Sequence record: NC_054934.1
Direction: 5' to 3' (one strand)
DNA from: Escherichia phage teqskov
DNA: 64,000 nt
This document shows positions 15,408-26,573 of the stretch, one piece after another. The position numbers were made by a program, and so were the translations under genes. Within the stretch, counting starts at the first letter, position 1. Each line of letters opens with the position of its first letter. The notes beneath the pieces are model-generated. The model did not search any database and had not been told where the DNA came from. It was given only the letters and a program-made list of their open reading frames with translations.

Positions 15408-16104
<697 letters not shown>

Positions 16105-16116
16105 CTTCATAAAGTT

Positions 16117-16156
16117 GTTTACACGCTGATGAGGTAGTGATACTATTACCTCATCA
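16117..16156 (+). promoter_or_regulatory. early promoter cassette with inverted repeat (PeSL-like)
   Basis: GTTTAC box followed by 10-bp inverted repeat tgatgaggta/tacctcatca flanking gtgatactat. Confidence 0.5.
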
Positions 16157-16176
16157 AAATTAATTAGGAAAATAAA

Positions 16177-16434
16177 ATGAAAACTTATAAAGAGTTTGCT
16201 ACAGAAACTATTATCACTGAATCTTCTCATGGTATGGAAGTAAAGCTTGGAATGGCTTTAGCTGAAGCTGAGCGTCTTTTTTCTCGTATTAAAGAACTTG
16301 CTGCTGCAGTCGATCCTTCATCTTTTAAAGGAGACCAAACTAAAGTTAAAGCACTTTTAGCATTATGCTCTGATGCAGGAGAAATCGCTAAGAACGGTTC
16401 TAAGATGAAGAAACGATTAGAAGATTTAAAATAA
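16177..16434 (+). CDS. internal-protein-like small protein with capsid-targeting-type N-terminus
   Basis: 85 aa; N-terminus MKTYKEFATE resembles the T-even internal protein leader MKTYQEFIAEA. Confidence 0.6.
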   Translation: MKTYKEFATETIITESSHGMEVKLGMALAEAERLFSRIKELAAAVDPSSFKGDQTKVKALLALCSDAGEIAKNGSKMKKRLEDLK

Positions 16435-16446
16435 TTTCACAAAGTT

Positions 16447-16490
16447 GTTTACACGGGGTTTTAGTAGTGATACTATTACCCTATCAAAAC
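16447..16490 (+). promoter_or_regulatory. early promoter cassette (second copy)
   Basis: aaagttgtttacac plus gtagtgatactattaccctatc, near-identical to the copies at 16111 and 16741. Confidence 0.5.
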
Positions 16491-16512
16491 AAATGTGAAA
16501 TTGGAGAATAAA

Positions 16513-16746
16513 ATGAAAACGTATCAAGAATTTATTGCTGAAGCTGCTGATGTAAAAGTTGAGTTTATTTACATTGGCAAGAAAGATAAAATGGGCGAAA
16601 TGCCTCATGGAGTTCTTCGTGATGCATTAGATAATTTCGGTCAACTCGGTGGTGAAGAGTTTGGTGATTATTTTGTTATCTATGGACCAGAAAAAGTCAT
16701 CGAGAAATGGGCTGATAAATATAAATCAATTTTTCGTAAAAAATAA
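16513..16746 (+). CDS. internal-protein-like small protein
   Basis: 77 aa from ATG (MKTYQEFIAEA); track start 16495 is a GTG extension. Confidence 0.6.
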   Translation: MKTYQEFIAEAADVKVEFIYIGKKDKMGEMPHGVLRDALDNFGQLGGEEFGDYFVIYGPEKVIEKWADKYKSIFRKK

Positions 16747-19016: not shown

Positions 19017-19571
19017 ATGAGAAGTGATGTAGACTGGGACCAAATTAATTTGGCTATAAAAGCTGGATTAATATACCATGGTAATTTTGAAATAACACAA
19101 GAACTAATTGAAAATGTTGCTTTTCTTAAAATAACAGATAAGAAAAAATTCTTTTCTATGACTGAAGCCAAACGCTTGTCAAAATGGAAAGTATTTTGTA
19201 GGACTGCCGCCCTAAATCTTTTGAAATTTAAAGATGAATTTGATATAGAAAAAAGCTATCGACAGGCTTTCGTATACATAATGGTAGATACTACAAATCC
19301 TAATTATTATAAAATAGGAAGAAGTATAGAACCTGATGTTAGAGTTATAACAGCAAATACATTTTCACCGTTTAAAAGTTTTAAAATAGTATCATTTAGA
19401 TATTCCCAGGATGCAGTAGAACTTGAAAAATATATGCACAGCATTTATAATCAGGACCATATAAATGGTGAATGGTTTTTCTTTCATGACATAAGTTCCA
19501 TAGTTAAAAAATTAGATACTAAATCTACACAATTTGAAATACCAAATGAGAAACCGGGTCGCTACCGGTAA
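19017..19571 (+). CDS. T5orf172 / GIY-YIG-related domain protein
   Basis: 184 aa; segment VYIMVDTTNPNYYKIGRS ... R ... E..Y.H ... GEWFFF fits the T5orf172 pattern; no N-terminal GIY-YIG as in segB. Confidence 0.55.
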   Translation: MRSDVDWDQINLAIKAGLIYHGNFEITQELIENVAFLKITDKKKFFSMTEAKRLSKWKVFCRTAALNLLKFKDEFDIEKSYRQAFVYIMVDTTNPNYYKIGRSIEPDVRVITANTFSPFKSFKIVSFRYSQDAVELEKYMHSIYNQDHINGEWFFFHDISSIVKKLDTKSTQFEIPNEKPGRYR

Positions 19572-19859
19572 GTCGTCGGACTGATGTTCCCTGAGTAAGG
19601 AATTGCGTTAATAATCTTTGCGTTTATTGATGCCCTCTTACATCACAGCAGAAACGGCGCACCGAATTATCGATTCGAGGAAATATCTTTGCCGTAAGCC
19701 GAGTAGCGTTTTTGACGGAACGTTCGGATATGGTCGAGATATGGCCTTTTAAAAATATTGAGTAGCGTCAACTACTTAATAACCGGGTTCAAGTCCCGGC
19801 GTTTCGTACAAACACTTGCCTTAGCAGGTGGAACCCCGACAAGGTTGCCGCAAGGCTTA
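19572..19859 (+). ncRNA. probable stable RNA region (T4 species 1/2-like), boundaries not resolved
   Basis: non-coding, GC-richer, contains tRNA-like T-arm ccgggTTCAAGTcccgg; same position relative to tRNA-Arg as the T4 stable RNAs. Confidence 0.35.
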
Positions 19860-19886
19860 GCCCCGACCGAAAGGTTGGGGCTTTTT
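19860..19886 (+). terminator. rho-independent terminator
   Basis: 9-bp stem with GAAA loop (gccccgacc gaaa ggttggggc) followed by TTTTT. Confidence 0.7.
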
Positions 19887-19888
19887 AG

Positions 19889-19896
19889 TATAAATA
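19889..19896 (+). promoter_or_regulatory. late promoter TATAAATA
   Basis: exact TATAAATA about 35 nt upstream of the ATG at 19933. Confidence 0.5.
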
Positions 19897-19932: not shown

Positions 19933-20406
19933 ATGAAATCATATGCTCAATTTTTAAATGAAGCGGTGTTAAATGAAGCATCTAGCACTGAAATTCAAGC
20001 TGTTGCAAAAGCTGCCATTGCCGCGGGTAAATATTCCTATAAAGATGCTTCCGATGAATCACGATTCCAATTTGCTCGTGATATGAAAGCCGAAGGATTT
20101 ACAGGGAATGCAGTTAGTATGGCTTGGAAAAGTTTAGTTGCTACTGGAGCTGCTTTTGCAAAGGCTTCAGGTAAACCTGCTCCTAAGGCTGATCCTAAAG
20201 CAGCACAAGAAAAAAATATTGCTAAAGGAATTATCTCTAGGTATGAAGCAATTCTTAAAGAACTTTTGATAATCAAAACTGAAGGCCAAAAGCTAGCTCG
20301 TGCTTATAGTTTCAAAGATAACCCACATGTTCACTCTCTTGAATATGTTGAAGACATCCAAAAAATTATTAAAGACCGCATTTGGTCTGCTAAACAAATC
20401 AAATAA
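19933..20406 (+). CDS. internal-protein-like protein, Ala/Lys-rich
   Basis: 157 aa; N-terminus MKSYAQFLNEA resembles the internal protein leader. Confidence 0.55.
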   Translation: MKSYAQFLNEAVLNEASSTEIQAVAKAAIAAGKYSYKDASDESRFQFARDMKAEGFTGNAVSMAWKSLVATGAAFAKASGKPAPKADPKAAQEKNIAKGIISRYEAILKELLIIKTEGQKLARAYSFKDNPHVHSLEYVEDIQKIIKDRIWSAKQIK

Positions 20407-23154: not shown

Positions 23155-23639
23155 TTTTAAAAACTCGCTGGTATGATTTAGATGATGGGGACGATGGCAT
23201 TTCAGTTGATAGAGTTGATTGGAGTGGCTGTTCTGAAGATACAAAGAAACGATTAATTAGGGAGTTTAGAATGGGATATCAAGCAGCTAAGCCATCTACT
23301 GTAACAGATGATAAATTCGTGTGTATTCAAAATGGTCGTGCTAAGTTAACGAACGCTGATTGGTTCACAGATAAGAAGGTTATTCTGTGGTATATTATTA
23401 GTTTTCCTGTGACATCATTTGTATTTTGCTTCTTTGGAGAAAGTCCAGTAGGCAGAACGGAAGATTGGATTCTTTTAATTATACTTGTTAATATTTTTAC
23501 AGCAACAGTACTATCAGGAATATGGTGCGTGTTCATTGAAATGCCATGGCGGTTACGTAGGCAGCAAAAGATTTTTGATGAAAAGAAATATACTCAAAAT
23601 TTAAATAATTTTATCACTGAATGCAGGAAATTAAAATGA
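23151..23639 (+). CDS. membrane protein, third member of tandem triplet
   Basis: 162 aa; hydrophobic segments; C-terminus FITECRKLK. Confidence 0.5.
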   Translation: MILKTRWYDLDDGDDGISVDRVDWSGCSEDTKKRLIREFRMGYQAAKPSTVTDDKFVCIQNGRAKLTNADWFTDKKVILWYIISFPVTSFVFCFFGESPVGRTEDWILLIILVNIFTATVLSGIWCVFIEMPWRLRRQQKIFDEKKYTQNLNNFITECRKLK

Positions 23640-24076
23640 AAACATTATCAGCTGGTATTATCTTTATGACAGAAGATAAAGATTTATTTATGGGACGAGT
23701 TACTGGTTCTCGTAAGCCTGGAATGATGGCACATCGCTGGGATATTCCAAAGGGGCGTGTAGAAAATTCTGATTTAAGCGCATTAGATGCAGCACGAAGA
23801 GAATGCTCAGAAGAGACTGGTTTTAACAATTATAATCCAGACCTTCTAGAAGACCTAGGTGTATTTAAATATTCTAGTAATAAAGACTTACAGTTATTTT
23901 ATTATACGATTCCAGTAGAGCATGAGATGTTCAGAAATTGCCATTGCGAGTCTTATTTTGAAAATAAAGATGGTGTTATGATTCCAGAGATGGATGCTTT
24001 TGCCCTTATTCCTCGTACTCAGTGGCAATATGTGATGGGTCCTTCACTTTACCGAATAATGAACAGCCTCTTTTAA
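23636..24076 (+). CDS. nudE: Nudix hydrolase (T4 e.1/NudE-like)
   Basis: Nudix-box-like segment GRVENSDLSALDAARRECSEETGF; start chosen at the ATG with SD AGGA; alternative ATG at 23621. Confidence 0.7.
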   Translation: MKTLSAGIIFMTEDKDLFMGRVTGSRKPGMMAHRWDIPKGRVENSDLSALDAARRECSEETGFNNYNPDLLEDLGVFKYSSNKDLQLFYYTIPVEHEMFRNCHCESYFENKDGVMIPEMDAFALIPRTQWQYVMGPSLYRIMNSLF

Positions 24077-24607
<531 letters not shown>

Positions 24608-24611
24608 AGTT

Positions 24612-24645
24612 GTTTACTTTCTCCTAGAATTGTGATAGTATATTC
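24612..24645 (+). promoter_or_regulatory. early promoter upstream of denV
   Basis: GTTTAC box followed by tgtgatagtatatt -10-like region with flanking inverted repeat. Confidence 0.45.
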
Positions 24646-24666
24646 ACAGTTACTTGGAGGGATAAA

Positions 24667-25083
24667 ATGACTCGTATTAATTTGACTTTAGTATCTGAAC
24701 TTGCTGATCAACATTTAATCGCAGAATACCGTGAATTGCCACGTGTTTTTGGTATAGTTCGTAAGCATGTGGCAAACGGTAAGCGCGTTAAAGATTTTAA
24801 AATATCTTCCGAGTTTATTTTAGGTTCTGGTCATGTTACGTTCTTTTACGATAAGTTAGAATTTTTGCGAAAGCGTCAATTAGACATTATAACGGAATGC
24901 TTAAAACGAGGGTTCAGTATAAAAGATACTGAAGTTCCTGACATCAGCGATATTCCAGTAGAATGGAAAAATGATTATAATCCATGCAAATCAGCTATTA
25001 AATTGAGTCAACAACGACTTGATGAAAAAATTTTAATGAAACCACATTGGTATAAGTATTACGGTAAAAATATTTACATTTAA
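24667..25083 (+). CDS. denV: endonuclease V (pyrimidine dimer glycosylase) denV
   Basis: 138 aa; N-terminus [17 protein letters not shown] and overall pattern match remembered T4 endoV, with divergence in the C-terminal third. Confidence 0.9.
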
Positions 25084-25092
25084 AGGAAACAT

Positions 25093-25566
25093 ATGAAAAC
25101 ATATCAAGAATTTATCACTGAAGCAGCTATTAATTCTCAAATTATTGCTGAATCTTTTACCGATCTTTTGAAATTTAAAAAAGGTCAAAAAATCACTGCT
25201 GTATTGGATGATGGTACAGAAGTTGAGATGGATGTACAGGGATATAATTATGCAGTAGATGGAAAACTGTATAATAAATCTCATGCTAAATTTGATTCAT
25301 TTGACGACTTTGTTAATACAGTTGAAGATGAAAAAACTCGTAGATCCATTGCAACTGGTGATGCTAAGGTTCTTATGGCACATGGTCATGAACGCATTCG
25401 CGCTAAACAGAATAAAATGGGTGAAGATAATTTTGCATTAGTTGGTTATCAATCTGGTAAACAAACTTATGGCTATCAACGTACTGCTACCATGTATAAT
25501 AAAAATGGTAAAATCGCTTTCGTGAATAGTAAAGGTTCTATTCAGTACGTTAAATCGTTCAAATAA
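25093..25566 (+). CDS. internal-protein-like protein
   Basis: 157 aa; N-terminus MKTYQEFITEA matches the internal protein leader. Confidence 0.6.
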   Translation: MKTYQEFITEAAINSQIIAESFTDLLKFKKGQKITAVLDDGTEVEMDVQGYNYAVDGKLYNKSHAKFDSFDDFVNTVEDEKTRRSIATGDAKVLMAHGHERIRAKQNKMGEDNFALVGYQSGKQTYGYQRTATMYNKNGKIAFVNSKGSIQYVKSFK

Positions 25567-25706
25567 TATGGGAACAACCTGGACCTCATGATTCTATGAG
25601 GGATTCCCGCCAACCTGTAATAAGGTCGAGCCTGAGTGCGGTAATGGGTAAATACAGAAATGGACAATTCATGCGCCACGGAATGGCCCAAATTTAGAGA
25701 GAATAA

Positions 25707-26247
25707 AATGAGAACATTTTTAACTGGTCCTTATCTATCCCTGATGAATGCTTTTACACACCATTCTGACGCTAGAGTAGAAGAAATTTGTAAAAACGAA
25801 TATATCCCGCCATTTGAAGAATTACTTAAACAGTACTGCACACTTCGACTAGATGGTGGACGTCAATCTGGTAAATCAACTGCAGTAACTAATTTTGCCG
25901 CTAATTGGTTGTATGACGGTGGAACAGTTATTGTTCTTTCTAATACTTCAGCTTACGCTAAAATTTCTGCAAATAACATTAAAAAGGAATTTTCGCGTTA
26001 TTCTAATGATGATATACGTTTTCGTTTATTTACTGATTCTGTACGCAGTTTTATTGGTAATAAAGGAAGTAAGTTCAGAGGTTTATCGCTTTCGCGAATT
26101 TTGTATATAATTGACGAGCCTGTCAAATCTCCTGATATGGATAAGATTTATAGTGTCCATATTGACACTGTACACTGCTGCTGTAATATTAAATGTTGTA
26201 TTGGTGGTATTACTCGTCCACAGTTTTTCGTAATCGGAATGCAATGA
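25707..26247 (+). CDS. small P-loop NTPase-like protein
   Basis: 180 aa from ATG with SD; Walker A GGRQSGKST and Walker B-like ILYIIDEP. Confidence 0.5.
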
Positions 26248-26573
26248 TGACAGACACTCAGCTTTTCGAATATCTTTATTTTTCGCCAAAAACTATTAAA
26301 AATAAATTGGTGAATCATTTTGAAATTTTGGCAAATAATAACACTTTGAGCGAATTTTATCCCAAGCAATACAAATTACAAAAAGGTATATTCAAAGGAT
26401 GCAGAGTTTTGTGCACTGCTCCTAATGCACGGCTAATGAATAAAATTCCATATTTTACCATGGAATTTATTGATGGACCTTTTAAAGGATTAATTACCCA
26501 AAGTTTAATGGCATATGATTCTGAGCCATTTTTAATTAAAGAACAATCTTGGATAAATTTATTTTCTAATTGA
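26244..26573 (+). CDS. hypothetical protein
   Basis: 109 aa, ATG overlapping the upstream stop. Confidence 0.45.

Follow-up and report, generated by a model that had tools for sequence, protein, structure and literature searches.

The stretch of DNA analyzed here, referred to throughout as the window, is a 64-kb segment (64,000 nt) of a Tequatrovirus (T4/T2-like) genome whose + strand corresponds to the direction of T4 early transcription. Downstream of the lysozyme gene e, the window carries the endonuclease V gene denV, which ends with a stop codon at 25081-25083, and 9 nt further on begins an open reading frame encoding a protein of 157 amino acids that we refer to as ip4. The ORF listing and the sequence confirm this frame as it had been described in the first-pass annotation, directly after denV and with a leader beginning MKTYQEFITEA. 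The locus is made up of the following features, in which an arrow marks a known or predicted site of proteolytic cleavage.

23621-24076: nudE, upstream of ip4
24079-24086 and 24092-24099, + strand: two perfect T4 late-promoter motifs (TATAAATA), upstream of e
24113-24607: lysozyme gene e, upstream of ip4
24606-24650, + strand: early-promoter-like block (AAAGTTGTTTAC...GTGATAGTAT) just past gene e, the shared left border of the cassette
24667-25083, + strand: denV (endonuclease V), a divergent allele that lies upstream of ip4, shares its transcription unit and belongs to the variable cassette
25083-25089, + strand: ribosome-binding site (RBS) of ip4, AAGGAAA, 3 nt ahead of the ATG, assigned from sequence and alignment
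25093-25566, + strand: ip4 coding sequence, with an ATG start and a precursor of 157 aa, 17.8 kDa and pI 8.9, from the ORF listing
25093-25122, + strand: capsid-targeting sequence MKTYQEFITE, codons 1-10, with predicted gp21 cleavage after Glu10 (I-T-E↓A)
25144-25152, + strand: possible second gp21 site, I-A-E↓S, codons 18-20, from family conservation
25567-25659, + strand: G+C-rich conserved intergenic element, forming the cassette's shared right border

Translation of ip4 starts with MKTYQEFITEAAINS, and the mature protein is computed to comprise 147 aa if it starts at A11 or 137 aa if it starts at S21, with a pI of 9.1-9.3. The RBS belongs to a 28-nt upstream block that is identical in type to the block ahead of T4 ipII. 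From 24600 to 26300, the window shares 99.2% identity with Escherichia phage REP2, and matches to this region occur in 726 phage records. Homologs of vs.8, vs.7 and vs.6 follow downstream. The equivalent of the T4 vs.8 start codon opens an ORF of just 33 codons in the window (25596-25697), and the long ORF of the vs.8 region (25660-26247; 195 aa, with the P-loop GGRQSGKST) lies in another frame and has an N terminus matching that of a Klebsiella phage homolog (MDSLHAPRNG...). Three starts are used for the vs.8 homolog in public records, of which 25660 fits this Klebsiella N terminus, 25708 is that of REP2 and 25744 that of GiZh. The vs.8 homolog of Klebsiella phages ValerieMcCarty05 and ValerieMcCarty04 is annotated as a 'putative terminase large subunit' and looks like a misannotated small P-loop protein.

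No late promoter precedes ip4 itself, which sits behind the early-promoter-like block. On the + strand, no terminator-like site was found between 23500 and 26300, and late read-through from the TATAAATA pair upstream of e could transcribe denV and ip4. To judge from these motifs, the late-promoter pair, the lack of a terminator and the early-type block at 24606 would together allow both early and late transcription of ip4.

The Ip4 leader is identical to that of T4 IPII and IPIII (MKTYQEFIAE↓A) at 9 of its 10 positions, with T9 in place of A9. GenBank entry X04567 annotates IPII and IPIII as precursors that shed residues -10 to -1. As recounted in PMC9026906, Mullaney and Black (1996) found that IPIII needs no more than its first 10 residues for packaging, and assigned residues 4 and 7 to targeting and residues 8 and 10 to processing. 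Ip4 retains the determinants of both kinds, Y4 and F7 for targeting and I8 and E10 for processing. The first-pass annotation had taken the leader to be of the capsid-targeting type, and the cleavage context of the prohead protease gp21 is indeed present: the gp21 motif, (I/L)-x-E with a small residue next, occurs as I8-T9-E10↓A11 and, at a possible second site, as I18-A19-E20↓S21. Both Glu10 and Glu20 show at least 90% conservation across the family, with I, L or M at the P3 position of the Glu20 site. Two of the three distant members described below have a canonical LNE↓S at the second site, and members with as little as 34-36% identity still have the leader and the I/L-x-E motif in their protein sequence. 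In the structure model, residues 1-20 form a low-confidence appendage (pLDDT <55, about 50) to a well-defined domain. The propeptide of T4 IPI/IPI*, the injected inhibitor of the GmrS/GmrD type IV restriction enzyme, likewise ends in I-T-E↓A, and the 19 residues that IPI sheds are comparable to the possible 20-residue propeptide of Ip4.

Leaders of this type were sought throughout the window in two ways. A degenerate DNA pattern for MKTYQEF (ATGAARACNTAYCARGARTT), scanned with up to 2 mismatches, matched at 16177, 16513 and 25093, against a chance expectation of 0.04. A six-frame scan of the 64 kb for M[KN]x[YF]xx[FI] at the start of an ORF, combined with an I/LxE site no later than residue 15, returned exactly four ORFs, those at 16177, 16513, 19933 and 25093, which are the four leader-bearing genes that had been counted at first pass. 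Besides ip4, these are:

16177-16434, + strand: second leader-bearing gene, 85 aa, leader MKTYKEFATETIITE↓S, ipI locus; PHROG 3499 'internal head protein', E = 3.7e-50
16513-16746, + strand: third leader-bearing gene, 77 aa, leader MKTYQEFIAE↓A, ipI locus; PHROG 8111 'internal virion protein', E = 1.8e-50
19933-20406, + strand: fourth leader-bearing gene, 157 aa, leader MKSYAQFLNE↓AVLNE↓A, with two LxE sites

The gene at 16177 has an internal-protein annotation in many phage records. The ipI locus (16102-16746) consists of two tandem cassettes, each behind the same promoter-like and RBS block of ~70 nt (AAAGTTGTTTACAC...GTGATACTATTACC); T4 has a single ipI at this locus, unrelated to the two genes of the window. 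The ORF at 19933 occurs in 510 phage records, is called a 'hypothetical protein' in every record among those listed, and falls into PHROG 2280, which has no function assigned. A perfect late promoter (TATAAATA, 19889-19896) lies 36 nt upstream of it, itself after a terminator-like hairpin, and the homolog in Klebsiella phage KpV477 also has TATAAATA. The leader is kept in homologs, reading MKSYAEFLTE in Mosigvirus mogra and MKFKEFLAE↓A in KpV477. No homolog was found in the corresponding stretch of T4 (rnaC to e.8), and the product was not found among the rows listed from the VMC03/04 proteomics supplement. From its sequence, 19933-20406 plausibly encodes an internal protein that has escaped annotation as such. 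In the same part of the window, a 184-aa ORF (19017-19571) follows the tRNA cluster, and a G+C-rich stretch (19572-19890) lies at the position of the T4 small stable RNAs rnaC and rnaD; Rfam identified only tRNAs in the window.

Ip4 is covered from end to end by two family profiles, Pfam DUF7412 (PF24183; residues 1-157, E = 5.7e-96, 319 bits where the curated cut-off is 27) and PHROG 3155 'internal virion protein' (E = 6e-102); a search of NCBIfam gave sub-threshold noise only. By tblastn, it is 100% identical to proteins of T2, RB6, PP01, GiZh and many other phages, in which the gene is labeled ipIV (GiZh and PP01), and it is named Ip4 in ime09. UniProt entry Q38388, 'Ip4 [Enterobacteria phage K3]', is 99% identical and is also the sole significant match of the structure model in a viral structure library. 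In K3, T2, RB6, PP01 and GiZh, the same protein of the same length is encoded in the same place next to e/denV. The window gene is what the older T-even literature calls Ip4; it is already known, named, annotated and represented in curated families. Descriptions of the gene, its leader and the polymorphism of its locus date from the 1990s onward, and the name is decades old. A passage of Silas et al. (2025; PMC12373910) that cites Repoila et al. (1994) counts at least 10 leader-bearing internal proteins.

We found ip4 in 469 phage records, 289 of them at ≥99% identity and ~160 at 60-80% identity, the latter from Klebsiella phages (Jiaodavirus and related) and Salmonella T4-like phages. T4's IPIII is found in 261 records and IPII in 198. 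Ip4 is the commonest occupant of the e-denV locus among sequenced relatives, and T4 represents a minority configuration, such that the initial description of ip4 as an "additional" gene does not hold in the sense of a novel one. Among 5.8 billion proteins, the family itself makes up 14 clusters (90% identity), all of them carrying PF24183. It is narrow, as an exhaustive profile search of 1.84 billion representatives returned just 7 proteins, of which 3 are metagenomic at 34-36% identity. Among these distant members, P0016 has no match among cultured phages, and P0015 lies on a contig too short to show gene context.

Evidence for packaging comes from an ortholog in Klebsiella phage ValerieMcCarty04 (VMC04), a different phage from that of the window. 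This protein (WKM80649.1; 159 aa, ~69% identical), encoded directly after an e-type lysozyme gene, accounts for 66 PSM rows in CsCl-purified virions, whereas the IPII-like protein encoded next to it has 26 (PMC13119998, Supplementary Data S2). The row 'internal virion protein gp126/118' in Table 3 of that report was considered as the Ip4 ortholog and rejected, as it corresponds to the IPII-like neighbor, the ortholog being gp119 (WKM80649.1). None of the 66 PSMs covers residues 1-12 (no TYQEFLNESR peptide), and the next tryptic peptide, R.LATVGVMTESVGSNLLK.F, was detected 3 times. This pattern, whose basis is an absence of peptides, is consistent with packaging followed by removal of the 10-residue leader through cleavage after E10. 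The second site in VMC04 has the non-canonical sequence MTE↓S and is spanned by a peptide that was seen 3 times; thus, it is cut at most partly in this phage. In ValerieMcCarty05 and ValerieMcCarty04 (Jiaodavirus), the Ip4 ortholog and an IPII-like gene lie side by side after the lysozyme gene, showing that ip4 and ipII are not mutually exclusive. The leader, the membership in the Ip4/internal virion protein family and the abundance of the ortholog in purified virions bear out the earlier reading of ip4 as an internal-protein gene, and Ip4 of the window is very probably a packaged internal protein.

The e-denV locus in which ip4 lies is one of two polymorphic internal-protein loci, the other being ipI, and its borders are common to T4 and T2. 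On the left, homology to T4 (about 95%) and to T2 runs through e as far as 24656 and then breaks; on the right, homology to T4 restarts at 25566, immediately after the ip4 stop and in the place occupied in T4 by the denV stop codon. Between these borders, T4 carries ipIII-ipII-denV, T2 carries ip4 alone, and the window carries the divergent denV followed by ip4. Relative to T2, the neighborhood of ip4 alone differs (e-ip4 without denV, as against e-denV-ip4), and relative to T4 the order is reversed, with ipIII-ipII ahead of denV in T4 and ip4 after denV in the window. A 12-mer of the left-border block recurs ahead of each ipI-locus cassette, at 16111 and 16441. The expectation at first pass that the number, sizes and positions of internal-protein genes differ from those of T4 proved correct: T4 has e-ipIII-ipII-denV and a single ipI, whereas the window has e-denV-ip4 and, in the ipI position, two different small internal-protein genes. 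Nowhere in the 64 kb was a homolog of mature T4 IPI, IPII or IPIII found.

Over 60 nt spanning the RBS and leader, ip4 of the window is 95% identical to the 5′ end of T4 ipII. The block upstream of ip4 is of the ipIII type in T2 and of the ipII type in the window. This conserved RBS-plus-leader DNA is an obvious substrate for recombination that shuffles these genes, and the locus would vary by swaps of whole cassettes, likely through recombination in the near-identical RBS-plus-leader DNA on the left and in the conserved intergenic element on the right. The idea of recombination at the RBS and leader reportedly goes back to the 1994 study of T-even internal-protein polymorphism by Repoila et al. 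We considered the spacer at 25567-25659 as a structured RNA, an intron remnant or a terminator and rejected these assignments (no Rfam match but tRNAs in the window, a fold z of -0.42 and no terminator-like site); it is read here as a conserved cassette border. The denV allele has 71% nucleotide identity to T4 denV, compared with 95-96% in the flanks, and differs from it by 31 nonsynonymous and 46 synonymous codons. T2 has no denV at this position. Divergent within conserved flanks and missing there in T2, denV thus behaves like one of the cassette's exchangeable parts.

Within this exchangeable setting, ip4 differs from the window sequence by 10 nucleotides in T2, 5 in REP2 and 9 in GiZh. Every one of these differences is synonymous, indicating strong purifying selection on the protein. 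The first-pass annotation had invoked a fast-evolving repertoire, a description that is wrong for the sequence of Ip4, which is identical in T2; what varies is the presence or absence of the cassette.

Past the leader, Ip4 aligns with none of the T4 internal proteins, a comparison that had been proposed at first pass: the leaderless protein shows no similarity to T4 IPI, IPII or IPIII (best E-values 0.59 or worse) or to the products of the other three leader-bearing ORFs. T4 IPII and IPIII, encoded between e and denV, share with Ip4 the locus, the left promoter block, a near-identical RBS and leader, and the character of small basic proteins, but no similarity is detectable after about residue 12 (E above 0.5). 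A profile of Ip4 found nothing below E = 0.5 among PDB sequences, and the structure model had no informative relative in the PDB. The model has a mean pLDDT of 83.8, exceeding 90 for most of residues 31-157 and lower in 121-130 and 141-150, and the predicted fold is a small beta-barrel with a helical insert. Seventeen invariant positions, mostly uncharged, persist down to 34% identity, and the residues kept in distant members are mostly glycines and hydrophobics, with a few Lys, Asn, Gln and Tyr. An enzymatic role involving the conserved His64, His99, Glu111 and Asp112 was considered and rejected, as such histidines and acidic residues, though invariant in close relatives, are not kept in the distant members. 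This pattern suggests that Ip4 is a binding module and not an enzyme.

T4 Ip1, Ip2 and Ip3 each inhibit one distinct GmrSD variant, without cross-protection (Silas et al., 2025; PMC12373910), and T4 IPI* has a compact non-enzymatic fold (PMC3012670). When ip4-10 were assayed against representatives of 15 GmrSD groups, no reproducible inhibition was seen (Silas et al., 2025; PMC12373910). GmrSD targets have been identified for T4 IPII and IPIII and none for Ip4 (PMC12373910), and our literature searches found no described function of Ip4. The anti-restriction role raised in the first-pass annotation is one of analogy, and the result for ip4-10 implies that the target of Ip4 would be either a GmrSD variant outside the tested set or a different kind of system. 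By analogy with the T4 proteins, we put the chance that Ip4 is a specific anti-defence inhibitor at somewhat less than even.

The best explanation overall, to which we assign a probability of roughly 0.8, is that ip4 is an alternative T-even internal (head) protein gene whose product would be packaged, processed, injected and active in the host. The Ip4 precursor would be made from the denV-ip4 transcription unit, and its first 10 residues, MKTYQEFITE, would bind the scaffolding core of the assembling prohead. The protease gp21 would cut behind Glu10 (I-T-E↓A) and perhaps again behind Glu20 (I-A-E↓S), releasing a basic protein of 15.5-16.5 kDa that remains with the DNA inside the head and accompanies it into the cell, ahead of any phage gene expression. 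Once in the cell, Ip4 would most likely act, by analogy with T4 Ip1, Ip2 and Ip3, as a non-enzymatic, stoichiometric blocker of a host factor that attacks the incoming modified DNA.

A packaged Ip4 might instead have no specific host target and serve as a generic basic, DNA-associated head protein, contributing to charge neutralisation or to the organisation or exit of the DNA. The mature pI of 9.1-9.3 would suit this role, as would the lysine-phosphate contacts reported for internal proteins (PMC3012670). However, the net charge of Ip4 is small, and electrostatics would explain neither the conservation of every residue across hundreds of phages nor the invariant, mostly uncharged positions retained in the most distant members. 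In addition, related phages have unrelated proteins in this same position, an argument against a required structural part, and all three of the T4 internal proteins tested are specific inhibitors (PMC12373910). Because unrelated proteins substitute freely and the conservation spans a mostly uncharged surface, we rank a generic DNA role below specific inhibition and regard it as unlikely.

Far less probable is that the leader represents a recombination scar and that Ip4 is an ordinary intracellular early protein, co-transcribed with denV and untargeted to the head. The placement of ip4 9 nt after denV, behind an early-promoter-like block and with no late promoter of its own, is compatible with such an origin, and leader DNA 95% identical to that of T4 ipII would be expected after a recent recombination. 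Nevertheless, the ortholog yields 66 PSMs in CsCl-purified virions against 26 for its IPII-like neighbor, and the retention of the leader and the I/L-x-E motif in members of 34-36% identity lies beyond what conservation of DNA by recombination would account for. Moreover, the 10-residue leader alone packages foreign proteins in T4, according to the account in PMC9026906. Although an A+T-rich genome yields many ORFs, the notion that ip4 is a chance ORF or a mis-called gene without a product is refuted by its full-length family matches, synonymous-only divergence, ortholog peptides and confident fold prediction.

Returning to Ip4 as a presumably injected internal protein, a more specific pair of proposals can be offered, the two jointly being more tentative than specific inhibition as such. 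Ip4 may inhibit a common host defence beyond the tested GmrSDs, such as another modification-dependent nuclease or glycosylase or a sensor of incoming hmC DNA, by means of a small beta-barrel unrelated to IPI*; separately, the product of 19933-20406 may represent an unrecognised class of injected internal proteins. As a discovery, the gene offers little that is new, and the interest that remains lies in the target of a very widespread internal protein. Ip4 is more widespread than IPII or IPIII and is carried by T2 and by many therapeutic-type Tequatrovirus and Klebsiella phages. Finding its target would reveal a defence that these phages commonly meet and would help to predict their host range.
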